Assembly: GCA_902558105.1 (NCBI GenBank)
Contig: CACECR010000002.1
Location: 1-54,021 of the forward strand
From: an uncultured Candidatus Marinamargulisbacteria bacterium
GTDB taxonomy: Bacteria; Margulisbacteria; Marinamargulisbacteria; UBA817; CACECR01
Length of the DNA: 54,021 bases
Direction of reading: 5' to 3'
The notes beneath the pieces were generated by a model that worked only from the letters and a program-made list of their open reading frames with translations, searched no databases and was not told where the DNA came from. Positions 5,536 to 46,687 of the stretch are shown here, piece after piece. The first letter of the stretch is position 1, and each line of letters opens with the position of its first letter. The position numbers and the translations under genes are program-made.

Positions 5536-5626
5536 CTTCTAAAACAAATAATTTCAATTCAGATTTGTTAAATAAAAAACAAACTAACTAAAGTAATAAG
5601 ATCAAATAATCGAAATCATAATTACT

Positions 5627-6565
5627 ATGATTAGAAGAAATATTGGGATAATTTTATTACTTATTTTTGTTTCATGTTTATTTGTATTTACACTAAATAC
5701 TTTAAACAATTGGTATGAAGCTAAATATGATTCAAAACGTACTATCATTGAAAAAAGAATTCAAGATAAAATTAACACATTAATAAAAACCACACTTCGA
5801 ACATCTAAATACGAAGTATTAATCACTATTGATTCTGAAACTACAATTGATAATCGAGAATCTATCAAACAAAAACCAGACACAATTAATACCATTGAAA
5901 GGACATTTGTTGAAACACAAAAAGAAATTAGTGGAAAAAAACCATCAATTCAAAAAGTTAGTAATCAGTTAAAATCAAGTCCAGGTTTTGAAAATGTGAT
6001 ACGTGATACACGCTTATCCAAAATAAAAGAAGAGGCTAGATTAATTACAAACGATAAAGAGTTAGAATCCGTAAGTACTGAAAAAAAGAGAGAGACAATA
6101 TATTTAAATCAAGATAAATCATTACGAACTACTGAACGGTTATCTATACAAAATATTATCATTTTCATAATGATAGATCGGTCGACATTAGGTCGATCAA
6201 ATGAGTCAATTGAGAGTCTTAAAGAACTTATAACTCAAAGCTTAGGTAAAAATTATAGTATTGATATTACAATCAAAGAAACCGAGTTTTTTGATAGTTC
6301 ACCGTATCATTTACCAATTCTTATACTAGTTAGTAGTTTACTAGCGTTATATGTTCTATACATATTAATCAAATGGTTTATTAATAGACCCAAAAAAGTA
6401 ATAGAAGAAATCAATGAGGTATTGGAAGAAAGAGACAACCAAGTTGATATTAAAAATGATATCTTAGCACTTGCACAGAGTGACATAAACAAATTTAATA
6501 CAGTCGTTCGGTCTATATTACATAGAAGTGAGTCCGTATTTGAGAAGGAAGATGAAAATGATTAA
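5627..6565 (+). CDS. Bitopic membrane protein, FliF/SctJ-like (miniature MS-ring candidate)
   Basis: N-terminal TM (IGIILLLIFVSCLFVF), about 210 aa of extracytoplasmic region, a second TM (LPILILVSSLLALYVLYILI), and a ~70-aa acidic cytoplasmic tail. The tail ends in ..LALAQSDINKFNTVVRSILHRSE, which resembles the FliG-binding C-terminal helix of FliF (pattern ..P..VA.V.R.WL as I recall it). Segments KYEVLITID and IIIFIMIDRS..ESIESLKELITQSLG..SIDITI resemble ring-building-motif strands. Its stop codon overlaps the fliG-like start. Confidence 0.45.
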   Translation: MIRRNIGIILLLIFVSCLFVFTLNTLNNWYEAKYDSKRTIIEKRIQDKINTLIKTTLRTSKYEVLITIDSETTIDNRESIKQKPDTINTIERTFVETQKEISGKKPSIQKVSNQLKSSPGFENVIRDTRLSKIKEEARLITNDKELESVSTEKKRETIYLNQDKSLRTTERLSIQNIIIFIMIDRSTLGRSNESIESLKELITQSLGKNYSIDITIKETEFFDSSPYHLPILILVSSLLALYVLYILIKWFINRPKKVIEEINEVLEERDNQVDIKNDILALAQSDINKFNTVVRSILHRSESVFEKEDEND

Positions 6566-7469
6566 TAGTAAAGAATTAATCGCTATAATCATTGCTGTTA
6601 TCGCAGAAAAGAATGCAGAATTAGCAAAAAAAATTATCAAGTCATTACCTCAAGAAGAATCAAATGACGTGGTAAATATACTCCAAGAAAATAACTTATT
6701 CAATGAAGAACAAGTGAATAGTGCATTACAGCAGTTTCATAAGTTAGCAATAGAAAAAAGTTCTATCATTATTTCGGATGAATTAAATGATTCACTAGAA
6801 AGCTTAATGGTGATAACCAATGAAAAAAGTAAAGAAATCAAACAAACATTACATAACATTAAAGATGAAAAATATATAAATTTTATGGAGAAAGAAGGGG
6901 AGTATAGTGCAGTAATGCTTTGTCATTTACTTGGTAGTGAGAAAGTCGCCACCTTACTATCAAAAAAAGAAGATAATGAAATTAATCAAATAATTAAAAC
7001 ATATCTAAATTCAACTCCTTATTCAGAATATATTAAAAATAGTATGACTCAATTTTTACTTAATGAATTAAGCGATCAGAAAGATAACAAAAAAATAGAC
7101 ACAAGTAAAATCTGTGAGGTGGTTGAATCCTTATCTGAAAGCACCATTGATTTTATACAAGCACAAAATGATCCTGATCTGAAACCAGTATTAGAGTCGA
7201 TGGTGAAAATTGAAGATATTGAAGAATATGATGATATGAAACTATCAAATTTTTTAAATTACTTTTCCGATCCAAAAGAACTTGTTGTTTTACAATCGTA
7301 CATACCTGAAAACATACAATTTCTTTTATGGAATAAATTAACAGATCGTTTAAAGGCGATTGTTGAAGAAGAGTCTCAACATTATGAAATAAATGAAGAT
7401 GATCAAATAAAATCAAAACAAAAAGCTCTAAAAATTATAAGAAAAATCAAAAAAGAAGGAGTTATATAA
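6558..7469 (+). CDS. fliG: FliG-family rotor protein homolog (three-domain)
   Basis: By-eye colinear match to FliG along the whole length. N domain: ELIAIIIAVIAEKNAELAKKIIKSLPQEE. Middle domain: YSAVMLCHLLGSEKVATLLSKKEDNEINQII. C domain: MVKIEDIEEYDDMKLSNFL..LVVLQSY..IQFLLWNKLTDRLKAIVEEE..DQIKSKQKALKIIRKIKKEGVI, compared with FliG MFVFEDI..LDDRSIQ..LALALKG..I..NMS.RAA..L..D.....V..AQ..I..I.RRLEE.GEI.I. Start trimmed from the track GTG (6528) to the ATG at 6558, which lies 9-13 nt after AAGGA. 6552 is an alternative start. Confidence 0.65.
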   Translation: MINSKELIAIIIAVIAEKNAELAKKIIKSLPQEESNDVVNILQENNLFNEEQVNSALQQFHKLAIEKSSIIISDELNDSLESLMVITNEKSKEIKQTLHNIKDEKYINFMEKEGEYSAVMLCHLLGSEKVATLLSKKEDNEINQIIKTYLNSTPYSEYIKNSMTQFLLNELSDQKDNKKIDTSKICEVVESLSESTIDFIQAQNDPDLKPVLESMVKIEDIEEYDDMKLSNFLNYFSDPKELVVLQSYIPENIQFLLWNKLTDRLKAIVEEESQHYEINEDDQIKSKQKALKIIRKIKKEGVI

Positions 7470-8234
7470 ATGGACATTTCGATATTAATTGGAGTCATAA
7501 TCGCTTCAACGATTGTTGCTAAAGCTATTGGGTTTGAAGAGTTTTTAAATGTTTTTCTTCATATAGAATCTATTTTAATTGTTTTAGGTGGTGTGACAGC
7601 GGCTGCTTTTGTCCATTTTCCTTTTTCACAAATAAAAAAGATTTTCTCTAGACTAAAAGTTATGTTTAGTATGAAACGTTACAATTATATTAATGATATT
7701 AATTTCATGGAAAATCTATCTAAAAAAATTAGGGCTGAAGGAAAACTTAGCATTAAAGATGAATTAAATCAGTCTAAAGATCATTTCTTGAATATGGGAA
7801 TGCAATTGTATTTAGATAACTTACCAATTGATAACCTTAGAGATATTCTTAATGAAAGTATTGGTTATATGAGTAGTCGTCATGAACAAGGAATTCGTTT
7901 TTTTGAACAACTCTCTAAATATTCACCATCATTTGGATTATTAGGTACCGTTATTGGTCTTATCAAACTTTTATCCAAACTTGAAAATCCTGAAGCCGTA
8001 GGGCCTGGAATGTCACTAGCATTAATTACCACATTTTACGGAATTTTCTTTTCTAGTCTATTATTTTTACCAATGGCAGGCCGTTTAAGATTATATAGTT
8101 TAGAAGAACTTCAACAAAAAGAAATGATGATGGTGGGTATATTATCAATTGCAAATAATGAACCAAGTATCATTGTAAGAGAAAAAATGATGTTATTTTT
8201 ATCAGAAAAAGAACGTAAAGCATATAAAGAGTAA
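7470..8234 (+). CDS. motA: Flagellar-type stator proton-channel protein MotA/PomA family
   Basis: 254 aa with a 2+2 TM topology and a ~100-aa cytoplasmic loop. Conserved Pro in SPSFGLLGTVIGLI and in LLFLPMAGRL (equivalents of MotA P173/P222). Loop motif IRAEGKLSI..DHFL..GMQLYLD. Start abuts the fliG-like stop (TAAATG). Confidence 0.85.
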   Translation: MDISILIGVIIASTIVAKAIGFEEFLNVFLHIESILIVLGGVTAAAFVHFPFSQIKKIFSRLKVMFSMKRYNYINDINFMENLSKKIRAEGKLSIKDELNQSKDHFLNMGMQLYLDNLPIDNLRDILNESIGYMSSRHEQGIRFFEQLSKYSPSFGLLGTVIGLIKLLSKLENPEAVGPGMSLALITTFYGIFFSSLLFLPMAGRLRLYSLEELQQKEMMMVGILSIANNEPSIIVREKMMLFLSEKERKAYKE

Positions 8235-8238
8235 GTGT

Positions 8239-8925
8239 ATGAGACGACCAAAACGAGAAATTATTGAAGATACAGATTCAAATGCTTTCATAACAGGATG
8301 GGCTGATACAGTAACATTATTACTAGTATTTTTTGTATATATAATTTCAATTTCTAGTATCGACATTGCAAAATTATTTAAGGCAACCGAATCCTTTAAA
8401 AGAGAAGTAAGCTCCACAGTTTCTTATGAAAGAGAGTTGGTTATTCCAGAATTAACTAAAAAATTACAAAGCTATGTTAAAGAAGAGCAACTTGAAAATG
8501 AGATAAAAATAAGTGGAAGTATTAATGACATCTTAATTAATTTTGGTGACCGATTATTATTTGATTCCGCATCAGCTAAACTCACACCCAGAGGAGAAGA
8601 AATCTTAAAAGAAATAGCCGCACAATTAAATGTATCAGGTATCCTAATAAGAATTGAAGGACATACCGATAATCGACCAATATCAAACGATCAATTTCCT
8701 TCAAATTGGCATTTATCAGCTTACAGGTCTGCTGAGGTTGTAGGCTATTTAGTTAGTAATGGCGTAGATCCAAAAATTTGTGAAATCATTGGATTCTCTG
8801 ATACCAAACCAATCGATAAAAAGAATACAAATGAAGCACGAGCAAAAAATAGACGTGTATTATTACTAATTAAAGAGTCCTACAGCAATCAAACCAATGA
8901 AATAAAGATAGGAGGTGCAGTTTAA
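8239..8925 (+). CDS. motB: Stator protein MotB (OmpA-like peptidoglycan-binding domain)
   Basis: Single TM with the channel Asp (ITGWADTVTLLLVFFVYI). C-terminal OmpA/MotB block IEGHTDNRPI..FPSNWHLSAYRSAEVVGYL...NRRVLLLI. Confidence 0.88.
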   Translation: MRRPKREIIEDTDSNAFITGWADTVTLLLVFFVYIISISSIDIAKLFKATESFKREVSSTVSYERELVIPELTKKLQSYVKEEQLENEIKISGSINDILINFGDRLLFDSASAKLTPRGEEILKEIAAQLNVSGILIRIEGHTDNRPISNDQFPSNWHLSAYRSAEVVGYLVSNGVDPKICEIIGFSDTKPIDKKNTNEARAKNRRVLLLIKESYSNQTNEIKIGGAV

Positions 8926-9446
8926 TGTTCAATCAGAATATGTTCCTAAACTTAATTGAACCTCAATTTTCCAAACTTTTTTCATATCATATGAAAAAAG
9001 ATATTTTATTTAAGATTACCAAAACAGAAAATGAATTGTATGAAAAGATAAAAAAAGAATATATAAAAACAGATCACTCCTATTTTAAATTAAGTAGTTT
9101 TCAATACAATATTTTACTGATAATTAATACTAATATAACCAAACAATTAAGCGAACAAATATGTAGTTCAAATACATTTCAAAATGGGTCAGGAGATACA
9201 TTTATTGAACGATATGTAACAAATCAAATTAATCAACTTATTATTTCGTTATTTAAAAAAGAAAATCTAAATTTCGAAGTAGAAAATAATAAAAACAATA
9301 TTGATGAATTAAATACATATATTAGCCAAGATATAATTTGGCACACTGAAATTAGTACCTACATAAAAGGACTAGAAATTGGTAAAGTAGGGCTTCTATG
9401 TCCTCAAAATATTGTAAGTAGTGAGGGTCAATATGAGTCGATATAG
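8925..9446 (+). CDS. Hypothetical cytoplasmic protein coupled to motB
   Basis: TAATG overlap with the motB stop. No TM or signal peptide seen, so it is not FliL-like. No motif I recognise. Confidence 0.5.
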   Translation: MFNQNMFLNLIEPQFSKLFSYHMKKDILFKITKTENELYEKIKKEYIKTDHSYFKLSSFQYNILLIINTNITKQLSEQICSSNTFQNGSGDTFIERYVTNQINQLIISLFKKENLNFEVENNKNNIDELNTYISQDIIWHTEISTYIKGLEIGKVGLLCPQNIVSSEGQYESI

Positions 9447-10482
9447 TATCATTTTCTTACTATTTATGAGTAACATAATTTACAGTTTTTATAATTTACC
9501 ATATATACCGTACAAAGAGGGACAATTTATTTTAAAAACTAACTACTCAGAGGGTGAACCGAGGGCAAGTGAACTATCTGTTTTACAAAGTGAAAGTGAT
9601 CAGAGCAAAAAAAGGTTACACTACACAGATTTAACGTTTGCATTTAAACAATTTGCAGTTGGATTAAGAGCTGTTCCAGTTAGATTTAGTGTTTTAGATA
9701 AAAAATTTGATATTACAGCACTTGGGTTTAATTTTTATTGGAGGCCAGACTTTTTAAAATTCAATAAACTTTTAAACTCACATATAGTGTTAGGAACTGA
9801 AAATATTGGAATAACAAATGATTTAAATAGCTCCGTATTTCGATATGATATTAAAACATCTTTTGCTACATTAAAATCAACACCTTTCAAACATTTTAAA
9901 CATTTTAACATTTATGTTTCTAGCTTAACTAATTTGGCAGAAGTTGATAAATATATTACAAGTTACGGAATCAGTTGGGAATATCCAAGAAGTAAGTTTT
10001 TCATAGAAAAATATTATGAACGATTATTAATTTCAGCAGAAGTAAATACGAGTAGCTATAGTAAGATTGGAATTATGATAAATCCAAGAGTATTTAGTCA
10101 ACGAAATTCAATACCAAATGATGTATTTCTACCTACATTCGGAATTAACCTTACATTTAATGGTTTTTTTATGAAACCTATAAAAATTATAAAACCTATT
10201 AAAATAAACAACTTATATATTGAATACATGGAAAAAGGCTTTATTGCATTTTATGAAGAAGACTATGATAAAGCATTATCGTATTATCAAAAAATAATAG
10301 TTAAATATCCACACTTTCCGTTAGCACATTCAAGATTAGGAGACATATACTATAAATTAAACATGCCAAACCTTGCAATGAAACATTGGAAAAAAACATT
10401 AATATATGAACCTAAAAACTATAAAGTGCTTAGAGCAACGAAACAGCTAGAAGAAGATTTAGCCAAAACTCAACGTAATTAA
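9433..10482 (+). CDS. Secreted protein with C-terminal TPR repeats
   Basis: Start trimmed to the ATG at 9433 (GAGGG Shine-Dalgarno site 5 nt upstream), overlapping the previous stop by 14 nt. Signal-like N-terminus MSRYSIIFLLFMSNIIYS. Beta-rich middle region. TPR-like C-terminus (EEDYDKALSYYQKIIVKYPHFPLAHSRLGDIYYKLNMPNLAMKHWKKTLIYEP). Confidence 0.55.
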   Translation: MSRYSIIFLLFMSNIIYSFYNLPYIPYKEGQFILKTNYSEGEPRASELSVLQSESDQSKKRLHYTDLTFAFKQFAVGLRAVPVRFSVLDKKFDITALGFNFYWRPDFLKFNKLLNSHIVLGTENIGITNDLNSSVFRYDIKTSFATLKSTPFKHFKHFNIYVSSLTNLAEVDKYITSYGISWEYPRSKFFIEKYYERLLISAEVNTSSYSKIGIMINPRVFSQRNSIPNDVFLPTFGINLTFNGFFMKPIKIIKPIKINNLYIEYMEKGFIAFYEEDYDKALSYYQKIIVKYPHFPLAHSRLGDIYYKLNMPNLAMKHWKKTLIYEPKNYKVLRATKQLEEDLAKTQRN

Positions 10483-11054
10483 AAATGATATTTAAATAAT
10501 AAATGATAGTTTGAATTAAGATTAGAGCCAATTTCAATTAAAACATCATTATATTTATACTGAAATATAGGTTGAGTTTCATAGGTAGTTTTACCTTTAC
10601 TTCGTTTGAATTCTATTTCATAAAATAATTTTAAAATTTTTGAATAATACAATGGAATTGAACTTCTTAATTTTAATTTATGAACAATAGATGAAATCTG
10701 ATAATAGTTATACAAACCCGATAAATCTAATTCATTAAATGTATAGTATAGACTGGAGTAAAAATTAAGAAACGTCTTGTTTTTTTTATTTAATGAAGGA
10801 CCATAATGAAAAGAAGATTTTAAAGATAAATGATTAGATTTATATACTGGAAAAGTAAAACCAGCTGAAGCAGCTTCAAAGTCTGATTGATGAAAATCTA
10901 ATAATCGTAAATGAAGATTTAATTTTTTATTAAGAAAATATGAAGAAGACAGTTCATACTTGGAATCTGTAAAAGAAGATTTAACACCAACTGTGTTTGC
11001 CTGACATAAACATACTAAGGATATTATTAGAATTAATATATATCGATACATCAT
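10479..11054 (-). CDS. Small outer-membrane beta-barrel protein (putative)
   Basis: Start trimmed to MMYRYILILIISLVCLCQA (signal peptide). Alternating beta pattern. C-terminal ..LLFKYHF ends in an aromatic residue, as in OMP barrels. Confidence 0.5.
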   Translation of the reverse strand: MMYRYILILIISLVCLCQANTVGVKSSFTDSKYELSSSYFLNKKLNLHLRLLDFHQSDFEAASAGFTFPVYKSNHLSLKSSFHYGPSLNKKNKTFLNFYSSLYYTFNELDLSGLYNYYQISSIVHKLKLRSSIPLYYSKILKLFYEIEFKRSKGKTTYETQPIFQYKYNDVLIEIGSNLNSNYHLLFKYHF

Positions 11055-11096
11055 GTTATTATAGCATAAAAGCTTAAATTTATATATTATTAAACA

Positions 11097-11357
11097 ATGA
11101 CACAATTAAGTGAAGATGATATTGATCGGATAATTGAAATGGCCTGGGAAGATAGAACTCCTCTAGATATCATTTTTAATCAATTTAATATTAATGAAAA
11201 TGAACTTATTTCGATCATGAGAAATAATATGAAATCAAGCTCATTTAAGATGTGGAGAAAACGAGTCAAATCTAGACCTACAAAACATTCAAAAAACAAA
11301 CTAAACGATTATAGTCGGTTTCAATGTCCAACACAAAACAAACCTCGACAAAAATAA
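11097..11357 (+). CDS. DUF2805 / TIGR03643-family small protein (photolyase-associated)
   Basis: The motif LSEDDIDRIIEMAWEDRTPLDIIFNQF...FKMWRKRV matches my memory of this family, which is typically found next to photolyase genes, as it is here. Confidence 0.65.
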   Translation: MTQLSEDDIDRIIEMAWEDRTPLDIIFNQFNINENELISIMRNNMKSSSFKMWRKRVKSRPTKHSKNKLNDYSRFQCPTQNKPRQK

Positions 11358-11365
11358 ATTTCCTG

Positions 11366-11395
11366 TTGATTCGCAAATTAATATTTTGATATATT
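11366..11395 (+). promoter_or_regulatory. Sigma70-like promoter candidate (TTGATT-N18-TATATT) in front of phrB
   Basis: Read directly. The -10 hexamer ends 7 nt before the ATG at 11403, and no Shine-Dalgarno site is present, which suggests a leaderless transcript or read-through from the DUF2805 gene. Confidence 0.3.
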
Positions 11396-11402
11396 AAACT
11401 TT

Positions 11403-12800
11403 ATGTCACAGAAAAATATAGTTTTTTTATTTAATAATCTACGTGTTTCCGACAACCCAGCACTTTATCATTCGATTAAAGATGGAGACACATCAGTAAT
11501 ATATAATTATGGTAACCAAAATATTGGAGCCGCTTCAAAGGTTTGGCTACACCATAGCCTTATTGAGTTTAAGAAACAGCTCAATCATGCCTTAAACATT
11601 CAAAACGACTGTAGTGAAGAATTGCTAAATAACTTAATCAAAAAAGACAAAATAAAAAGTATTTATTTAAATAGAAGTATTACTCCAGATCAAGCTTATG
11701 AAATGAAGAAAATAATTGAATTTGGAAAGAATAATGAAATACCCGTTTACTGCTATGAATCAGAATCATTGTGGCATCCGGATGAAATCCACAAAAATGA
11801 TGGAACTCCATATAAAGTATTCACACCGTTTTATAGAAAAGGGTGCTTACCACACAGTGTTCCAAGGAAACCATATCCGACACCAAATCTTAACATCTCC
11901 ACTTTAAATATAAGAAGTCTTAACATTGAGGACCTTAACTTATTACCTAGTATTAGGTGGGATAAACAATTAGTAGATTTATGGGATATTTCAGAAGAAG
12001 GTGCCCACAAGCAACTTAACGAATTTATAGAAGTAGGATTAACAAATTACAAAGAAGGCAGAAATTTTCCAGCTAAACCTTATATTTCAAAACTCTCACC
12101 ATACTTACATTTTGGACAATTATCAATTAATGAACTTTGGCATATCATTTTAAATCAAGAGGATTCCAAATCAAAAGATCATTTCTTAAGTGAGTTAGGT
12201 TGGAGAGAATTTTCTATATACTTACTACACCATTTTAAAAATTTACAAACAGAGAACTTTCAGAAAAAATTTGATAAATTCCCATGGAAGTATGATGAAA
12301 AAACACTTCAGAATTGGCAAAAAGGTCAAACAGGTATTCCAATAGTAGATGCTGGTATGAGAGAACTTTACACTACAGGATTTATGCATAATCGAAGCAG
12401 AATGATTGTAGGCTCTTTTCTAGTCAAAAATTTACTAATTGATTGGCGACATGGCGAACGATGGTTTTGGGATTGTTTATTTGATGCCGATCATGCAAGT
12501 AATAGTGCAAGTTGGCAATGGGTAGCTGGTTCTGGGGCAGATGCGGCACCATACTTTAGAATTTTTAATCCTGTGACACAAGCGGCAAAATTTGATCCTG
12601 ATGGTGAGTACATAAAAAAATATGTACCTGAACTTAAAAAATGTCCTTTAAAATATTTATTTGCACCATGGGAAGCACCTGATCATGAATTAAGAGCATT
12701 TGGAATAATTTTAGGAGAAACATATCCAAAACCAATTGTTGATTTAAAAAAATCTAGAGAGTCTGCTCTTGAGGCTTTTCAACTATTAAAGCAAACATGA
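11403..12800 (+). CDS. phrB: Deoxyribodipyrimidine (CPD) photolyase, class I type
   Basis: FAD-binding C-terminal block GFMHNRSRMIVGSFLVKNL..WRHGERWFWDCLFDADHASNSASWQWVAGSGADAAPYFRIFNP. N-terminal LRVSDNPAL. Confidence 0.85.
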   Translation: MSQKNIVFLFNNLRVSDNPALYHSIKDGDTSVIYNYGNQNIGAASKVWLHHSLIEFKKQLNHALNIQNDCSEELLNNLIKKDKIKSIYLNRSITPDQAYEMKKIIEFGKNNEIPVYCYESESLWHPDEIHKNDGTPYKVFTPFYRKGCLPHSVPRKPYPTPNLNISTLNIRSLNIEDLNLLPSIRWDKQLVDLWDISEEGAHKQLNEFIEVGLTNYKEGRNFPAKPYISKLSPYLHFGQLSINELWHIILNQEDSKSKDHFLSELGWREFSIYLLHHFKNLQTENFQKKFDKFPWKYDEKTLQNWQKGQTGIPIVDAGMRELYTTGFMHNRSRMIVGSFLVKNLLIDWRHGERWFWDCLFDADHASNSASWQWVAGSGADAAPYFRIFNPVTQAAKFDPDGEYIKKYVPELKKCPLKYLFAPWEAPDHELRAFGIILGETYPKPIVDLKKSRESALEAFQLLKQT

Positions 12801-14311
12801 GCAATTTAAGATTAGTCTTTGGAGATCAACTCAATAAAGAAATAAGCGCATTAAAAGGTCTTAGCAAGTCTGACTTTATTTTTATGTGTGAGGTAAAAGA
12901 AGAAGCCACACATATAAAGCACCACAAAAAAAAGATTGTTTTGTTATTTTCAGCCATGAGACATTTTGCCGAGGAGTTAAAAAAAGACGGTTATAACGTC
13001 ATTTATTCCAAATTAGAGGATGGTAATAATACGCAGTCTTTCGATAAGGAAATTGATAGAGTAATTAACACCAATAAGGTTAGCAAGCTTATCCTAACAG
13101 AACCTAGTGAATATAGAGTGTTAGAGAAATGTTTATTATGGAAATCTAAGCTAAATATTCCTGTTGAAATTAGAGAGGATACACGGTTTTTAGCAAGCCA
13201 TACAGACTTTGAAGTGTGGTCAAAAGATAAAAAACAACTAAGAATGGAGTTTTTCTATCGAAAAATGAGAGTAAAGCATAATATCTTAATGAATAATGAG
13301 CAACCAGAAGGTGGAAAATGGAACTATGATGCTGAAAATAGAAAGCCGCCCATTAAAGGACTCAATATTCCAGCACCTACAACATTCAAAGCAGATAATA
13401 TAACAAAAGAAGTCATCAATTTAGTGAAGAATGAGTTTAATACACATTACGGTAGTATCGAATCATTTAATTTAGCTGTCACAAGATCTGACGCACTTAA
13501 GGTTCTCGAAAAATTTATTAAAATTAGATTAGAGAAATTTGGGGACTATCAAGATGCTATGATCGAAAATGAACCATGGATGTATCATTCACATATAAGT
13601 TTTTATTTAAATTGTGGCCTACTTCTACCTTTAGAATGTATTTTAGAAGCTGAAAAAGCCTATAAAAAAGGAGCACCACTTAATGCAGTTGAAGGCTTTA
13701 TCCGCCAAATATTAGGTTGGCGAGAATATATAAGAGGAATTTATTGGCTACAGATGCCTCAATACGAAGAAATGAATGCGTTAAATGCAAGTAAAAAGCT
13801 ACCTGATTTTTTTTGGAACAATAATACAAACCTAAACTGTTTAAACCAATGTTTTTCTGAAACATATGAAAATGCATATGCACACCATATTCAAAGACTG
13901 ATGGTAATTGGAAACTTTTCTTTATTATGTGGATTAAATCCAAAAGAAGTAAATGAATGGTACCATATAGTATATGCAGATGCGTATCAATGGGTAGAAC
14001 TTCCAAATGTAAGCGGAATGGTATTATTTGCGGATGATGGAGTTGTCGCTAGTAAGCCCTATGCAGCCGGTGGTTCTTATATTAATAAAATGTCAAATTA
14101 TTGTAAAAACTGCAAATATTCAGTTAAAGAAAAAACAGGTGACTCAGCATGCCCATTTAATTATCTTTATTGGAACTTTCTTATTCAACATCAAGAAAAA
14201 TTTAAATCTAATCCAAGAATGGCCATGATATATCGAACTCTTCAAAAAATGGATGAAGATAAAGTTGAAGAAATCAAAAACTCGTCCATTAAATTTTTAA
14301 ATTCAATTTAA
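12797..14311 (+). CDS. FeS-BCP / PhrB-type cryptochrome-photolyase family protein (probable (6-4) photolyase with a [4Fe-4S] cluster)
   Basis: COG3046-like sequence (LVFGDQL.., ..ILGWREYIRGIYW.., ..HHIQRLMVIGNF..). Four Cys arranged C-x87-C-x2-C-x12-C (NC..YCKNCKY..SACPFNYLYW). This is the ligand spacing I recall for Agrobacterium PhrB and Rhodobacter CryB. ATGA overlap with phrB. Confidence 0.78.
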   Translation: MSNLRLVFGDQLNKEISALKGLSKSDFIFMCEVKEEATHIKHHKKKIVLLFSAMRHFAEELKKDGYNVIYSKLEDGNNTQSFDKEIDRVINTNKVSKLILTEPSEYRVLEKCLLWKSKLNIPVEIREDTRFLASHTDFEVWSKDKKQLRMEFFYRKMRVKHNILMNNEQPEGGKWNYDAENRKPPIKGLNIPAPTTFKADNITKEVINLVKNEFNTHYGSIESFNLAVTRSDALKVLEKFIKIRLEKFGDYQDAMIENEPWMYHSHISFYLNCGLLLPLECILEAEKAYKKGAPLNAVEGFIRQILGWREYIRGIYWLQMPQYEEMNALNASKKLPDFFWNNNTNLNCLNQCFSETYENAYAHHIQRLMVIGNFSLLCGLNPKEVNEWYHIVYADAYQWVELPNVSGMVLFADDGVVASKPYAAGGSYINKMSNYCKNCKYSVKEKTGDSACPFNYLYWNFLIQHQEKFKSNPRMAMIYRTLQKMDEDKVEEIKNSSIKFLNSI

Positions 14312-14315
14312 TAGT

Positions 14316-15761
14316 TTAGCGTTTTCGACTAGCATGCTTTTTTAGAATAGGCGATAAAATTTTTTGATGTGCCGTTGTTTTACGAAGAGCAAAAATCTGG
14401 TCTAACGCATATTTACGTGATTTTTTTTCATCGATGATTGGATCTGGGTATGAAGTAGGGTAGAGAGGCATGGTCCAAGGTTCATGAATAGATGAATCTG
14501 GTAAAGACTGTAACTCTGGAATCCAATGCCTAATAAACTGACCAGTGGGATCTTGATCATAACCTTGCTTAATTGGGTTATATACACGAAGAGTATTCAT
14601 TCCAGTCGTACCAGATTGCATTTGACATTGCGGGTAATGAATTCCAGGTTCAAAATCAACGAAGAGACTTGCTAAAAAGGGTGCGGTTAATTTCCAATCT
14701 AACCATAATTGATAAGAGGCAAAGCTCATTAACATCGCCCTCATCCGGAAATTAATCCAACCATGAGCATGTAAAGATCTCATACAAGCATCAATCATTG
14801 GAAACCCGGTTAAACCATTGGCCCATGATTTAAAAAGGTGAGTAGAGACCCTAGTACGAGCTAAAGTGTCATACAATGAATGCATATTTGTATCTTCCAA
14901 ATCAGGTTCATCTTCAAGCTTTTGAATAAAATGGCAATGCCAATATAAACGACTGATAAACGATTGAATTGATTTAATCCAATACCTCGAATCATTAGAT
15001 ACTTCTTGTTTTAATTGATTAAGTCGGTGGATAGAGTTTTGATAAATTTCCCTTATTGATAAACACCCAAAGGTAATGTAAGGAGATAATCTTGAACAAG
15101 AATCAAAAGCTGTTAATGGGGATGACATTTCATATCTATACAACTTTGAACGATGATATAAAAAGTCGTTTAATATTTTTAAGGCATTAGTACGCCCGCC
15201 TTTTAATCTATGTGGGCAAAGAATTTGTTGAGTAGAGTTAAGTGATGTAAACAAAGGAATATTATCAGAGGATTCCTTACAAGTTTGAATGGAATCCGGT
15301 TGAGTAATAATATTTTGGGTCATAATGTCATCCCAGTAACTAGCCCATTGATCGCGATCATCTAAAGCTCTAACCACACCATTCTGTTGACATTCAAGCC
15401 ATGACACATCATGTTGTTTACACCATGAAAGAATTTTTTTATCTCGTTCATATGTAAATAACGTACCTGTTTCTTGATGAGAAACCATGGTCGTAATTGA
15501 ATAAGTTTTAATTAAACGAGAAATGATATCAACTGAATCACCAACTTTCACAATTAAATGCGATCCCAGTTTAGAAAATTGCGAAGATAAATCATTTATA
15601 CACTCTATATAAAACTCATATTGTCGAAGACTGGAGTAATCTTTTTTCCAGTAATCAGGTTCAATTATTACAATCGGTAAAATCATACCTTGCTTTACCG
15701 CCTCGTCTAATGGAGCATGATCAACTATACGTAAATCTTTCTTAAACCAAACTAAAATCAT
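14316..15761 (-). CDS. Third cryptochrome/photolyase-family flavoprotein (Cry-DASH-like or photolyase-related)
   Basis: Start trimmed to MILVWFKKDLRIVDHAPL. GGRTNALKILNDFL.. and C-terminal ..GWINFRMRAMLMSFASYQLWLDW...FVDFEPGIHYPQCQMQSGT...RVYNP are CPF motifs. It is clearly distinct from the other two copies. Confidence 0.75.
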   Translation of the reverse strand: MILVWFKKDLRIVDHAPLDEAVKQGMILPIVIIEPDYWKKDYSSLRQYEFYIECINDLSSQFSKLGSHLIVKVGDSVDIISRLIKTYSITTMVSHQETGTLFTYERDKKILSWCKQHDVSWLECQQNGVVRALDDRDQWASYWDDIMTQNIITQPDSIQTCKESSDNIPLFTSLNSTQQILCPHRLKGGRTNALKILNDFLYHRSKLYRYEMSSPLTAFDSCSRLSPYITFGCLSIREIYQNSIHRLNQLKQEVSNDSRYWIKSIQSFISRLYWHCHFIQKLEDEPDLEDTNMHSLYDTLARTRVSTHLFKSWANGLTGFPMIDACMRSLHAHGWINFRMRAMLMSFASYQLWLDWKLTAPFLASLFVDFEPGIHYPQCQMQSGTTGMNTLRVYNPIKQGYDQDPTGQFIRHWIPELQSLPDSSIHEPWTMPLYPTSYPDPIIDEKKSRKYALDQIFALRKTTAHQKILSPILKKHASRKR

Positions 15762-15810
15762 ACGATTAGTATATAAAAAATTAAAAAATGAAATCAATAG
15801 AAATCAAGAG

Positions 15811-16485
15811 TTAGTAATAAATATCATTATGAAAGGATCGTGCAGACTCATTCAAAATTGATTTCACAGTAATTAACATTGAAATGGAATCAAGACAATC
15901 ATCGATTGAAACATGTGAATGATTTTTAACAAATAATTCAACTAATTTATCCACCATTGGAAATGTTTTTTTGAGTAACGAAATACGTTCAAAAATTCCT
16001 TCATTAGACTTTTTAGGGTGATGAATAGGGTGATGATTAAAGAAGCATTCGGGATGGCCTTCATAAACTCTAAATTGTGGATTAATTTCTAAAAAAGATT
16101 GAATCTCTTTTATTTTTTTAAATAAATTATAACTTTGTTTTGATAACTTTGGCTTATTATGATTGGAGCAGGTATGATTAATCTCAAGGTAATCCATATC
16201 AAGCCATTTAGCTAATGGGGCATAAAAAATACTACTATGTTTTTTTCCCAAATATTTTTTAGCTAACTTATCAGAAAATCGAGGATAAGAGTCTATTGAT
16301 TTAGGGAGATGTACCGGCATATCAATTACAATAAAACCTGATCTATATGTATCAAAGAAATGATTTAAATTATCTGTAAAAGACAATTCTAACTTACCAG
16401 AACTATTAATAGAAGACACGACCCAACCAAGCCGAGATCCATCAATTCCAAAAATTTTATTATTAAACTTGAATTCAGTTTTCAT
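15811..16485 (-). CDS. DUF429-like protein (predicted RNase H-fold)
   Basis: Start trimmed to MKTEFKFNNKIFGIDGSRLGWVV, which resembles the DUF429 N-terminal GxDg...GW motif. Lies upstream of, and on the same strand as, the Cry-like gene with a 49-nt gap. Confidence 0.45.
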   Translation of the reverse strand: MKTEFKFNNKIFGIDGSRLGWVVSSINSSGKLELSFTDNLNHFFDTYRSGFIVIDMPVHLPKSIDSYPRFSDKLAKKYLGKKHSSIFYAPLAKWLDMDYLEINHTCSNHNKPKLSKQSYNLFKKIKEIQSFLEINPQFRVYEGHPECFFNHHPIHHPKKSNEGIFERISLLKKTFPMVDKLVELFVKNHSHVSIDDCLDSISMLITVKSILNESARSFHNDIYY

Positions 16486-16504
16486 AGTTTCGTATACTGT
16501 AATA

Positions 16505-16771
16505 ATGACTACTAAACAATTAATATCAGCCAACTTCAATTTTGAGTGTAATACAAGAAATTACCGAGTGATTGTTGTTAATCATAACGTTACCATTTAT
16601 TGTTTTGGTATTAAAGACTTATTTAATATTTCTACAATTAAAAATGAAGTCTTTATTTACTTAAATAAAAATTTTCCATGCTCAAAAGAATTTTTAACTA
16701 AAACGTTTAAAGTAAAATACAAAAATAATAATAGCTTGTATGAAGTACCTTTCAGACTAATAGGATTTTAA
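16505..16771 (+). CDS. Small hypothetical protein, paralog of the next ORF
   Basis: Trimmed to MTTKQL.. to avoid overlapping the divergent gene. Shares ..GIKD.. and a C-terminal ..(L/F)IGF motif with 16773-17135. Confidence 0.35.
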   Translation: MTTKQLISANFNFECNTRNYRVIVVNHNVTIYCFGIKDLFNISTIKNEVFIYLNKNFPCSKEFLTKTFKVKYKNNNSLYEVPFRLIGF

Positions 16772-17811: not shown

Positions 17812-19020
17812 TTAGTATAATTCTCGTGCTTCATTGGATTTAACTAATGCATAACGGGTAAAAATAGGGCCAATCGTTTGGAAAACAAAAGTACTTGCCG
17901 TAATTAAATTAAGTACAAGAAACCCCATTTGTCCAGCTTCTACAGAAATTCGAGATAGTTCAATCTGAGTTGCGATGGCAAGACCTATCGCCACACCAGC
18001 TTGAGAAAATAAACAAAACCCTAAATATTTCTTAACATTTTGATTAGACGAAGAAATCGAGGCGCCGATATAAACTCCAAAATATTTACCAATCATTCGA
18101 AGTATAATATATGCAGACCCTAACAAGCCAAGTGTTGGTAATAAACTAATATCTAATTGAGCACCAATTAAAATGAAAAAAAGAACAAAAGTTGGAACCG
18201 AAAATTGTTGAAGTAAGTCAAAATAAGTCTTACTCCTATGAGGACGAATATTTCCAATGATCACACCCATACTCATGTTTGATAAAATTAAAGACAAGCC
18301 TAACCAATCTGATAACCCTGTACATCCAAATAATGCACTTAAAATAACTAACAATTTAATATCTTTATGTTTTACCTGAAGCATGATTAAACTAATAATA
18401 AAACCTAAAATAAAACCAATAACAATCGACATTAAAATATCGTAAGAGATAATATGTAATATTAGTTTGAGATCAATAGATGTAGACGCAGATAAAAATG
18501 CTTTAGCAATATTTAAAGAAAAGGCATAGATAATAATAGCAAACGCGTCATCCGCACCGACGACACCTAATAAATGAGAGGTTAGTGGTCCACGAGCACG
18601 GTACTCTTGTAAAATAGTTGTTGTTCCACCTGGAGCTGTAGCCGCTGCTAAAGAGCCCAATATTAATGCTATAGGAATATTAGACGTAATAAAATAAACG
18701 AAAGATCCGACCAAAATTGTAGCGGTTAAGGATTCAAAAATTGTAATGATAAAAATACTTTTACCAAAACGCTTTAAACGAGCCCAACGTAATTCACCAC
18801 CAATAGTAAACCCAACTAAACCAAGAGTTAAAGTTGTAATGACTGAAAAATTAGGAAGGTTCGCAGTGTTGAGAAGCTGTAGACCAGAAACCCCTAAAAA
18901 TACACCAATTAAAATATGCCCCACAACCTGTGGAACCTTAATAAGTTTAAATAGTTTACTAGCAATTGTACCAAATGTTAAAAGAAGACCAATAATTAAT
19001 ATAGAGTTTAATTCACCCAT
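17812..19020 (-). CDS. Cation:proton antiporter (CPA2 / Kef-type membrane domain)
   Basis: About 12 TM, 402 aa. Typical Na_H_exchanger N-terminus (ILIIGLLLTFGTIASKLFKLIKVPQVVGHILIGVFLG). Confidence 0.75.
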   Translation of the reverse strand: MGELNSILIIGLLLTFGTIASKLFKLIKVPQVVGHILIGVFLGVSGLQLLNTANLPNFSVITTLTLGLVGFTIGGELRWARLKRFGKSIFIITIFESLTATILVGSFVYFITSNIPIALILGSLAAATAPGGTTTILQEYRARGPLTSHLLGVVGADDAFAIIIYAFSLNIAKAFLSASTSIDLKLILHIISYDILMSIVIGFILGFIISLIMLQVKHKDIKLLVILSALFGCTGLSDWLGLSLILSNMSMGVIIGNIRPHRSKTYFDLLQQFSVPTFVLFFILIGAQLDISLLPTLGLLGSAYIILRMIGKYFGVYIGASISSSNQNVKKYLGFCLFSQAGVAIGLAIATQIELSRISVEAGQMGFLVLNLITASTFVFQTIGPIFTRYALVKSNEARELY

Positions 19021-45181: not shown

Positions 45182-46687
45182 ATGGCTATTTATTCTAAAA
45201 TATTACTTATAACAGTTTTAAGTGTACTTGTGTCATGCTCATCTGAACAAACTATAGATTCTAATGTAAATGAACGAATAAAGAATTTTCATAAAAAGAA
45301 ATCTGATATTTTTATTGAACCGAGAAATCTAAATGAATTTGCAGTAACTCAACGTCAATTTGACATTAATTGGTTGTATGATGACGTTGGAAAAGAATAT
45401 AGCAAATACACGTCAAAATTAAGAGAAAATCAATTTACAAAAGACGAACTATATAAATTATTAAAAAGAGCCTATATTCCTCATGATGAAGAATTTAGAT
45501 ATACACATAAACGTGCCGCAATTTATGCATTGAGTGCTTCGTTGTATCGAGAAGCAAACACAAATCCTTACAATGAAAATATTATCGAATTTAGAAACAT
45601 TATGTATAACCCTGAATTTGTGTCTATTCTTAGTAAAGAAAATTTAAAAGTTATTGAAACGTTACCTATCAATCTTTCAAATTATTATTCTTTAGTTTAC
45701 AGAGCAATAAAGCAAGATCCAAGGGCATTTAACTTATTAACTATGCAAATAAAAACAGATCCAAAGGTATTGAATTATTTGTTTTATAAAATTAACAAAA
45801 ACTATACTCACAAATACCAAAAAATGGCGATTCAGTACGCTACATACGATCAAGCCAAAGACTATCTTTCCCGAAATGGTTTACTTCTTGAGTTTGTAAA
45901 TAAAGACTTCCAGGATAATTCAATTCTAGTTTACACAGCGATTCTTCAAAATGAAAAGGCAATCACGTTTGCTTCTCCAAGATTACGTCGCATTGTTGAA
46001 ACAAGTGGTGCAGAAAAACTAATTGGATTATCCGCAAAATTATACATAATAAAAGATGAGTTCTCTCAAAAAACATCAGATATTTGGTACTTTAGTAAAA
46101 ACAAAAGTGTTGAGATAGTTGATAATATTTCAGCCAGTACAAGTAAAATGTACCAAAAAGCTAGATATTATATATTTGATGAAGAAATAGAAGATAGTTT
46201 TATTGATGAAGAACTTCAACTTGAAGAGCTTGTGTCGAGTAGTAAAATGATACCATTTACAAATGATAAAAGCATTGTAACAAATGTAAAAACTCTTATT
46301 GAAGTTGAATCATTGAAAAAAAGACCTTTACGTAATTTATGGAGGATTGCCAAAATAAATCGTCAACAAGAAATTTACATTGCATATTACCAACCTCAAG
46401 GAAAACGATACTTAAGTAGCATAATATATAGAAATGGTGATAAGTACATAGTGAGTGATTACAAAGCTACAATTAAAGACAATGGAAGTACAATATGGAG
46501 GTATCTCGATTACGGAAAATTTAATCCTGAAATGATTAAAATTGTAGATATTGAGGAAACAAAAGCTAAAACCATCCGAGTTAAATTTAAATGGGTTGGA
46601 AATGACCAATCAAGTTTGTATTTACTGTCAGAGAAAAATGAAAAATTCGTTAAAGAATTCATTAACTATATCGACAACATAAAATGA
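45182..46687 (+). CDS. Lipoprotein with DUF4116-like repeats
   Basis: Lipobox LSVLVSC. Repeats such as RNGLLLEFVNKDFQDNSILVYTAILQNEKAITFASPRLR resemble the DUF4116 pattern (nGlaL.ya...l.nDkeivlaAv.qn..aL.yAs..Lr). Confidence 0.5.
   Translation: MAIYSKILLITVLSVLVSCSSEQTIDSNVNERIKNFHKKKSDIFIEPRNLNEFAVTQRQFDINWLYDDVGKEYSKYTSKLRENQFTKDELYKLLKRAYIPHDEEFRYTHKRAAIYALSASLYREANTNPYNENIIEFRNIMYNPEFVSILSKENLKVIETLPINLSNYYSLVYRAIKQDPRAFNLLTMQIKTDPKVLNYLFYKINKNYTHKYQKMAIQYATYDQAKDYLSRNGLLLEFVNKDFQDNSILVYTAILQNEKAITFASPRLRRIVETSGAEKLIGLSAKLYIIKDEFSQKTSDIWYFSKNKSVEIVDNISASTSKMYQKARYYIFDEEIEDSFIDEELQLEELVSSSKMIPFTNDKSIVTNVKTLIEVESLKKRPLRNLWRIAKINRQQEIYIAYYQPQGKRYLSSIIYRNGDKYIVSDYKATIKDNGSTIWRYLDYGKFNPEMIKIVDIEETKAKTIRVKFKWVGNDQSSLYLLSEKNEKFVKEFINYIDNIK

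Follow-up and report, generated by a model that had tools for sequence, protein, structure and literature searches.

A conserved six-gene cassette of flagellar rotor and stator homologs in an uncultured Marinamargulisbacterium: a candidate self-contained motor

The core of the bacterial flagellar motor is built from the MS ring of FliF, the C ring of FliG, FliM and FliN, and the MotAB or PomAB stators. RBM1 and RBM2 of FliF house the export gate, the N-terminal peptide of FliM binds CheY, and the C-terminal domain of FliM docks FliN and FliH. No other rotor-stator pair like FliG with MotAB is known, and this pair has been found in complete flagella only. The MotX/MotY, PflA/PflB and FlcA scaffolds of Vibrio, Campylobacter and spirochaetes, respectively, also decorate complete flagella. 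Motors of the MotAB family that work outside the flagellum include Agl-Glt of Myxococcus and GldLM of the type IX secretion system of Bacteroidota, which are coupled to periplasmic tetratricopeptide repeat (TPR) and outer-membrane components, and ZorAB of the Zorya system, a stator of the 5:2 type. The FliF, FlhA and FliI proteins of Chlamydiae and the basal bodies of Buchnera are flagellar subsets kept without a filament, in which the export apparatus is retained and the torque generator is lost. Here we describe a cassette of six genes (positions 5627-10482, plus strand), with overlapping or abutting open reading frames (ORFs), in a 54,021-nucleotide stretch of contig CACECR010000002.1 (hereafter the window) from an uncultured Candidatus Marinamargulisbacteria bacterium. 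The cassette is the opposite of the chlamydial and Buchnera subsets: homologs of rotor and stator proteins are kept, and the locus contains no export genes.

Five of the six genes belong to the families of the flagellar motor core. On the plus strand and in this order, the cassette encodes a mini-FliF (g1, 5627-6565, 312 aa), a FliG homolog (g2, 6558-7469, 303 aa counted from the ATG), MotA (g3, 7470-8234, 254 aa), MotB (g4, 8239-8925, 228 aa), a divergent homolog of the FliM middle domain (g5, 8925-9446, 173 aa) and a secreted protein with a β-rich and a TPR domain (g6, 9433-10482, 349 aa), referred to below as the β/TPR protein. The torque charges of FliG, the channel Asp of MotB, the prolines of MotA, the RBM3, second transmembrane (TM) helix and tail of FliF, and the middle domain of FliM are common to the cassette and the flagellar core. 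Unlike the flagellar core, the cassette has a FliF without RBM1 and RBM2 and a FliM without the CheY-binding peptide and the FliN-like domain. None of the cassette loci contains FliN, FliH/I/J, FlhA/B, FliPQR, rod, hook, filament or che genes, and the cassette always carries the dedicated β/TPR protein. The FliG, MotA and MotB proteins are divergent, and the truncated FliF and FliM homologs fail tests for the full architecture. The original prediction, made from the sequence of the window, knew of no described six-gene system of this kind. Searches of the open-access literature likewise found no description of such a cassette, and none is described in a 2025 survey of MotAB relatives (PMC12505986) or a 2026 survey of flagellar-gene distribution.

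The product of g2 just passes the Pfam FliG_C threshold (25.2 bits, cutoff 23.3), and a single-sequence search of the PDB with the window copy returned nothing significant. However, alignment of the cassette FliG family to canonical FliG with hhalign gave a probability of 99.7% and an E-value of 1.5e-25 over 309 columns spanning three domains. The AlphaFold2 (AF2) model of the protein has a predicted local distance difference test score (pLDDT) of 80. A Foldseek search of the PDB with this model returned FliG structures for all of the top 15 matches, in which the full-length hits cover ~311-322 alignment columns. The template modeling scores of the individual domains are 0.86 for the C-domain, 0.77 for the M-domain and 0.61 for the N-domain. 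On profile alignment and predicted fold, the protein is a full three-domain (N, M and C) FliG homolog, as originally read. The torque helix has the sequence LTDR264LKAIVE-E271-E272. Arg264 is invariant in 15-16 family members. Glu271 and Glu272 follow it at +7 and +8, the spacing of R281, D288 and D289 of E. coli, and do not vary among the close members. Comparison of the gene with that of a Tara relative (86% amino acid identity) gave a pN of 0.07, a pS of 0.60 and a dN/dS of ~0.06, showing that the FliG gene is under strong purifying selection.

The stator proteins are recognisable from single sequences. MotA has four TM helices and matches Pfam MotA_ExbB with an E-value of 1.2e-27. It also matches the NCBIfam models of MotA, MotP and PomA over the full length (E 1e-55 to 1e-44) and stays below their equivalog cutoffs, and thus represents a divergent MotA subfamily. 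A profile of eight cassette MotAs matched the solved flagellar stators over the full length (E 1e-62 to 1e-50), the best matches being MotA of C. sporogenes (6.5e-62) and PomA of Vibrio (2.5e-52), with MotA of B. subtilis and Aquifex also matched. Pro153 and Pro201 in TM3 and TM4 (the equivalents of P173 and P222 of E. coli) and Thr160 and Thr188 are invariant in the cassette family. Arg88 is the equivalent of R90 of E. coli, and the position is basic in six of the eight members. Judged by these alignments, the protein is a flagellar-type MotA with a large cytoplasmic domain, unlike the ExbB/TolQ type. MotB matches Pfam MotB_plug (7.2e-9) and OmpA (2.4e-20) and the NCBIfam models of MotD, MotS and MotB (E 1e-43 to 1e-35). 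Its N-terminal TM helix carries the channel residue Asp22 (GWADTV) and is followed by a plug region, and an OmpA-like domain that binds peptidoglycan forms the C-terminal part. The channel Asp is kept in all eight orthologs. The four-TM MotA and the MotB with channel Asp and OmpA-like domain had both been proposed from the window alone, and the family and stator matches bear them out.

The two invariant threonines of the cassette MotA probably correspond to T158 and T186 of PomA. The window contains a gene for a Na+/H+ exchanger, and an Na+-NQR operon lies ~2 kb downstream of the cassette in one of the Tara-lineage loci (L014, 15740-20999). With the reliance of Marinamargulisbacteria on NQR (PMC6349859), these features make Na+ coupling of the cassette stator possible. 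In a neighbor-joining tree of 86 MotAs the cassette MotAs cluster, and the sole outsider among them is the MotA of a lone motAB locus (L023, 6520-10581), which nests with that of L018; an exclusive bipartition of the cassette MotAs was rejected for this reason. The lone motAB adjoins genes for an SLT transglycosylase, a pyrophosphatase and a DDE transposase, and no rotor genes are found within 8 kb on either side.

The window copy of the mini-FliF alone has no significant Pfam or PDB match, and its assignment comes from the family. A hidden Markov model (HMM) of its positional orthologs, built with the window left out, matched it as the only ORF of the window (E 5.8e-27). Pfam YscJ_FliF_C (PF08345) is matched by five of nine family members (best 3.9e-11). 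The family profile matched Salmonella FliF (6scn) with an E-value of 1.5e-8, and a profile restricted to the marine clade, to which the window belongs, did so with 1.1e-6, placing positions 39-323 onto FliF 239-537. Alignment to four canonical FliFs with hhalign (probability 94.7%) placed residues 37-301 onto residues 232-504 of 506. Residues ~5-24 form TM1 and residues ~227-250 form TM2. Between them lies a periplasmic domain of the RBM3 type that bears a short collar, and a cytoplasmic tail of 62 residues follows TM2. Within the periplasmic part, Pro84 and Pro119-Gly120, the latter within an 'LPGF' motif in relatives, are invariant, and the family tail carries the motif LAxxDPxxxxxxLxxWL. 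The RBM1/RBM2 family YscJ_FliF (PF01514) is matched by none of the family members, and the alignments to FliF begin at FliF residue ~232-239. Canonical FliF has 486-580 aa, and the family members, with 312-402 aa, are too short to accommodate RBM1 and RBM2. Thus, the FliF-like character claimed earlier stands and can be narrowed: on the family evidence, the protein is a FliF without RBM1 and RBM2, reduced to its two TM helices, an RBM3 that has a short collar, and a putative FliG-binding tail. Profile searches therefore support both the FliF and the FliG homologies.

The 173-residue product of g5 had been left as an unknown; instead, it is a highly divergent homolog of the FliM middle domain, which has a CheC-like fold, and the assignment of the window copy follows from transitive links and position. 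Single-sequence Pfam and PDB searches with the window copy returned nothing significant. However, an HMM of the family built without the window matched it as the only window ORF (E 2.5e-14), and three of eight family members match Pfam FliM (best 5.2e-11). The family profile matched the FliM middle-domain structures of H. pylori (5x0z, 4fq0 and 4gc8) with E-values of ~5e-6 and covered the protein end to end. Comparisons with hhalign linked the marine clade to the deeper-branching clade (probability 95.5%, E 1.4e-8) and the deeper-branching clade to residues 55-223 of canonical FliM (probability 94.1%). The marine-only profile had no PDB match, and its direct comparison with canonical FliM by hhalign gave a non-significant match of 32 residues. 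The family members are 164-254 aa long and are filled end to end by the FliM middle domain, without the CheY-binding N-terminal peptide (LSQxEIDxLL) and without the FliN-like SpoA C-domain. In contrast, the canonical FliM of three other loci (L039, L041 and L047) carries both the CheY-binding peptide and the FliN-like domain.

The last protein consists of a signal peptide, a β-rich N-domain of ~240 residues and a C-terminal TPR domain at ~260-348. The TPR domain matches Pfam TPR_1 and TPR_2 with E-values of ~1e-10, whereas no Pfam family matched the N-terminal ~240 residues. The original prediction thus recognised a secreted TPR protein correctly and missed the β-rich N-domain. An HMM built with the window left out matched the protein with an E-value of 5.6e-49, and its homolog is always the last gene of the cassette in the loci examined. 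The NCBIfam TPR models GltE, YbgF and FlcA gave weak matches (E ~0.004-0.015; the FlcA C-terminal model, 0.0037). As a secreted TPR protein encoded with stator genes, the cassette protein recalls the MotX/MotY, PflA/PflB and FlcA scaffolds. Unlike them, it has no significant family membership and an unmatched N-domain. Its constant presence suggests that it may connect to the outer membrane or serve as a stator scaffold, the role that TPR proteins have in the more elaborate motors of flagella. Loci of the deeper-branching clade have a further gene after this one, which encodes either a second β/TPR paralog or an additional β-rich secreted protein (L018, 9671-10603; L016, 13673-14890). The N termini of these extra proteins share the short motif xNxPxALMxxxGxxExG, which matches nothing in Pfam.

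The cassette is rare and recurs intact. Searched exhaustively with phmmer, a set of 1.84 billion representative proteins yielded 18 relatives of the window FliG (E <=1e-3), the nearest of which is 27% identical, and a word-indexed protein search with the same query found one relative only. The named members of the family come from two Ca. Marinamargulisbacteria single-cell genomes and one unclassified metagenome-assembled genome (MAG). The order mini-FliF, FliG, MotA, MotB, FliM middle domain and β/TPR protein was sought in other genomes and recurs in at least 11 further loci from divergent genomes, among them the two single-cell genomes, MAGs, Tara contigs and a contig syntenic with the window. 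The order is present in the window and in L100, L010 (on a 709-kb contig), L011, L012/13, L014/15, L021, L017/20, L018 and L103, and two incomplete loci are counted with them, one with a contig that stops within the FliM homolog (L019) and one partial (L022). L020-L022 come from a metagenome scan for MotA, in which 77 of 80 MotA loci are ordinary motAB, several with a canonical fliF-fliG pair a few kb upstream. The identity of FliG among the six-gene loci drops to ~20%. All six ORFs are intact in every complete locus, with conserved order and translational coupling. The flanks are unrelated between loci except for near relatives, and no seventh gene is conserved. Since the same order recurs in at least 11 loci with unrelated flanks, the arrangement of the six genes is not due to chance. 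Among the annotated flanking genes of the ~12 loci, no export-apparatus, rod, hook, filament, chemotaxis or other flagellar Pfam family was found.

A natural fusion of mini-FliF and FliG (674 aa, P0013) is encoded in L016 (10001-14890), followed by the FliM middle-domain homolog and two β/TPR paralogs. The 22 kb covered contain no motAB, and the system is thus present here in a split or rearranged form. The fusion mirrors the 1:1 pairing of FliF and FliG, as in engineered Salmonella FliF-FliG fusions solved by cryo-EM (PDB 8z4d). It supports direct contact between the products of g1 and g2. Unlike the engineered proteins, it belongs to a reduced, export-less system.

On balance, we consider it probable that the cassette encodes a self-contained, selectively maintained machine made from the torque-generating core of the flagellum, without export, rod, hook, filament or switch input. 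This reading is based on the homologies, the domain losses, the conservation of gene order and key residues, and the purifying selection. In the proposed machine, MotA and MotB would sit in the inner membrane and be anchored to peptidoglycan through the OmpA-like domain of MotB. Flow of H+ or Na+ past Asp22 of MotB would drive the MotA ring, the cytoplasmic face of which would push the torque helix of FliG at Arg264, Glu271 and Glu272. FliG would be carried by a membrane ring of the shortened FliF, the C-terminal helix of which would bind the FliG N-domain; this ring would consist of an RBM3-type periplasmic ring and two TM helices. The FliM middle domain would brace FliG from underneath. The β/TPR protein would be the periplasmic or outer-membrane partner that holds the stators or receives the mechanical output. 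Such a rotor would be unswitched and would export nothing, since the CheY-binding peptide, FliN and an export gate are all missing. The absent parts (RBM1 and RBM2, the FliN-docking domain, the CheY peptide and the rod, hook and filament) are those expected to be lost with export, switching and propulsion. Ring assembly, actual rotation, the role of the β/TPR protein and a host without a flagellum are steps that we infer, and the non-flagellar character of the machine is suggested by the domain losses and the gene context. The module was probably derived from the flagellar motor, since RBM3 and the FliM middle domain are flagellum-specific elaborations; the direction of this change is itself inferred. 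A more far-reaching version, in which the hosts have no flagella and a ring of FliF (RBM3), FliG and FliM middle domain is turned by MotAB and works on an outer-membrane or periplasmic TPR protein as a categorically new class of machine, is put forward tentatively and falls just short of being probable.

Several observations weigh against these readings. The EHPQR motif of FliG, which contacts FliM through the FliG M-domain, is degenerate in the marine clade including the window; the canonical EHPQ aligns with EGEY in the window and with E(S/T)DQ in the deeper-branching clade. The GGXG motif of FliM is similarly degenerate in the marine clade including the window and is present in the deeper-branching clade only. 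The equivalent of Glu98 of MotA, five residues after a conserved Gly, is not conserved in the cassette MotAs and is replaced by Lys, Val, Leu, Gly or Ile. An acidic residue is found two positions further on in five of the eight members, and, with its FliG partner Arg264 invariant, the MotA-FliG interface may have been re-registered. The tail of the window mini-FliF lacks the Pro and Trp of the family motif DPxxxxxxLxxWL. Given these degenerate positions, the contact surfaces between the proteins may have diverged. The window copies of the mini-FliF and the FliM homolog have no significant direct hits, and their assignments rest on family profiles and synteny. The AF2 model of the β/TPR protein, built from four sequences, has a pLDDT of 42, with the TPR part alone predicted confidently and the N-domain below 50. 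Finally, genes for full flagella may still be present at other places in the host genomes, and a survey of FlgV showed that some Margulisbacteria carry flagellar genes (PMC11607428).

The last point bears on an alternative that we consider unlikely but worth weighing, in which the cassette is the core, or a second specialised set, of a real and oddly organised flagellum with its remaining genes elsewhere in the genome. Each of the five recognisable proteins is a member of a flagellar family, the genes of a flagellum can be dispersed over a genome, and some Margulisbacteria have flagellar gene clusters (PMC11607428). However, the mini-FliF lacks RBM1 and RBM2, the part of FliF around the export gate, and the FliM homolog lacks the FliN-binding C-domain and the CheY-binding peptide. 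In addition, the ~12 independent contexts never place the cassette beside other flagellar genes, in contrast to the canonical motAB loci of the metagenome scan, where fliF-fliG often lies a few kb upstream. The same β/TPR protein always ends the cassette, and the draft genomes of Marinamargulisbacteria are small (0.5-2.0 Mb, PMC6784892).

A machine that does not spin freely was also considered. The work of the stator could pull on or remodel the envelope through the β/TPR protein, as in Tol-Pal, ExbBD or Agl-Glt, or the assembly could be a mechanosensor or a regulated ion leak. The cassette supplies a rotor with neither axle nor propeller, the β-rich and possibly outer-membrane domain with its TPR part recalls TPR and outer-membrane components of the envelope-spanning Agl-Glt and Tol systems, and, of the two canonical charge pairs between stator and rotor, one is degenerate. 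However, MotA is of the flagellar type with a large cytoplasmic domain rather than of the ExbB/TolQ type, the charges of the FliG torque helix are kept, and the retained ring-forming RBM3 and FliM middle domain fit a rotating ring best, making this a rather improbable explanation. The Agl-Glt and GldLM motors have TolQR/ExbBD-like or GldLM stators and no FliG, FliF or FliM, whereas the cassette combines a flagellar-type stator with rotor proteins. This difference in stator type sets the cassette apart from Agl-Glt, Tol and Ton-type systems, to which it does not belong.

The reading of the cassette as a decaying, now functionless leftover of a flagellum that was lost is strongly disfavoured. 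In its favour, the sequences are very divergent, and the marine clade has degenerate forms of several canonical motifs. However, the six ORFs are intact, their order and translational coupling are conserved, the key residues are invariant and the dN/dS is ~0.06; furthermore, the cassette is kept in streamlined low-GC genomes across lineages with FliG identities of ~20-27%. Because the torque parts are kept under these constraints, the preferred reading is a working rotor-stator module rather than a relic. The original prediction had left a stripped-down flagellar relic open beside a rotary device; the strong purifying selection speaks against the relic, while the homologies, the gene order and the isolated context hold, and one of its two unknowns is the FliM homolog, which gives the cassette more of the rotor than that prediction had recognised. 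A Zorya-like anti-phage system on a MotAB-type motor is essentially refuted: MotB matches the PADLOC ZorB models (E 1e-18), as any MotB would, but the other five proteins match neither ZorA, ZorC, ZorD nor any other defence family in PADLOC, the ZorA tail and the ZorC, ZorD and ZorE effectors are lacking, the compact MotA is of the flagellar type with FliF, FliG and FliM homologs as partners, and the context is housekeeping and syntenic with no defence island.

The six same-strand ORFs and their junctions read off the sequence exactly as first listed. The start codon of g2 at 6558 precedes the TAA of g1 at 6563-6565, and g2 and g3 are joined by TAAATG (7467-7472). A gap of four nucleotides (GTGT, 8235-8238) separates g3 from g4, and g4 and g5 are joined by TAATG (8923-8927). 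The ATG of g6 at 9433 precedes the TAG of g5 at 9444-9446, starting 11 nt before the g5 stop. Shine-Dalgarno-like motifs (AAGGA, AAGGAG, AGGAGG and GAGG) are located 5' of g2, g3, g5 and g6. The AT-rich region of 91 bp 5' of g1 (5536-5626, plus strand) presumably contains the promoter and is the sole gap of the unit that exceeds 4 nt; a promoter consensus scan of it found promoter-like sites at a level not above that of shuffled sequence. Rfam, tRNA and promoter/terminator scans added nothing on the locus. The G+C content of the cassette (~28%) matches that of the window (27-36%).

The neighbouring genes are likewise as first reported, with the suf genes on one side and an outer-membrane protein (OMP) gene and photolyase genes on the other. 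The sufBCDS, sufU and nfu genes lie upstream, and a convergent OMP-like ORF, a DUF2805 gene and three photolyase-family genes lie downstream. The remaining genes of the window are housekeeping genes, including the suf and three photolyase-family genes, hisS, RNR, ilvBN, gshAB, hemH, GSIII and others. A Pfam scan of all non-cassette ORFs of at least 120 aa in the 54 kb found no flagellar families, in agreement with the original prediction. The block at 10479-16468 comprises the convergent OMP-like ORF (208 aa), the DUF2805/TIGR03643 gene, three photolyase/cryptochrome-family genes on the minus strand (11403-12800, 12797-14311 and 14316-15797) and a DUF429 gene. This block is missing from the contig L100, which is syntenic with the window in its suf operon, cassette, Na+/H+ exchanger and hisS and in which the cassette directly precedes a homolog of the ORF at 16469-16771 of the window. 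The block thus resembles an island for the repair of light damage that was inserted beside the cassette. The Na+/H+ exchanger gene of the window is located at 17812-19020. A 501-aa protein encoded at 45182-46687 has DUF4116 repeats as its sole match (E 5.9e-10) and has no relation to the cassette. A secreted protein made largely of low-complexity repeats rich in Ser, Asp and Gly is encoded directly upstream of the cassette in loci of the Tara lineage and in no others (L014, 7975-9012; L021, 524-1066).

Cassette-type FliG proteins (P0016 and its cluster mates P0105 and P0106) are also present in three Picozoa single-cell assemblies (eukprot SAG25, COSAG04 and SAG22), showing that a cassette-bearing bacterium was repeatedly co-sequenced with Picozoa; it could be their prey, a symbiont or a contaminant. 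Trichoplax harbours another Marinamargulisbacterium as an intracellular symbiont (PMC6784892).

If the hosts have no flagella and the cassette is a new class of machine, it would show that the half of the flagellum that generates torque can persist under selection by itself, and it could be either a product of reduction or a living analogue of a pre-flagellar stage. A functioning sub-assembly of the flagellar motor would bear on how the flagellum evolved from simpler working parts. It would also add a member to the short list of non-flagellar ion motors of the 5:2 type (Tol, Ton, Agl-Glt, GldLM and Zorya), and, being minimal in composition, it is attractive for structural studies of how torque is generated. 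The hosts are barely known marine bacteria, some of them associated with eukaryotes, and the function of the cassette may inform on their lifestyle.

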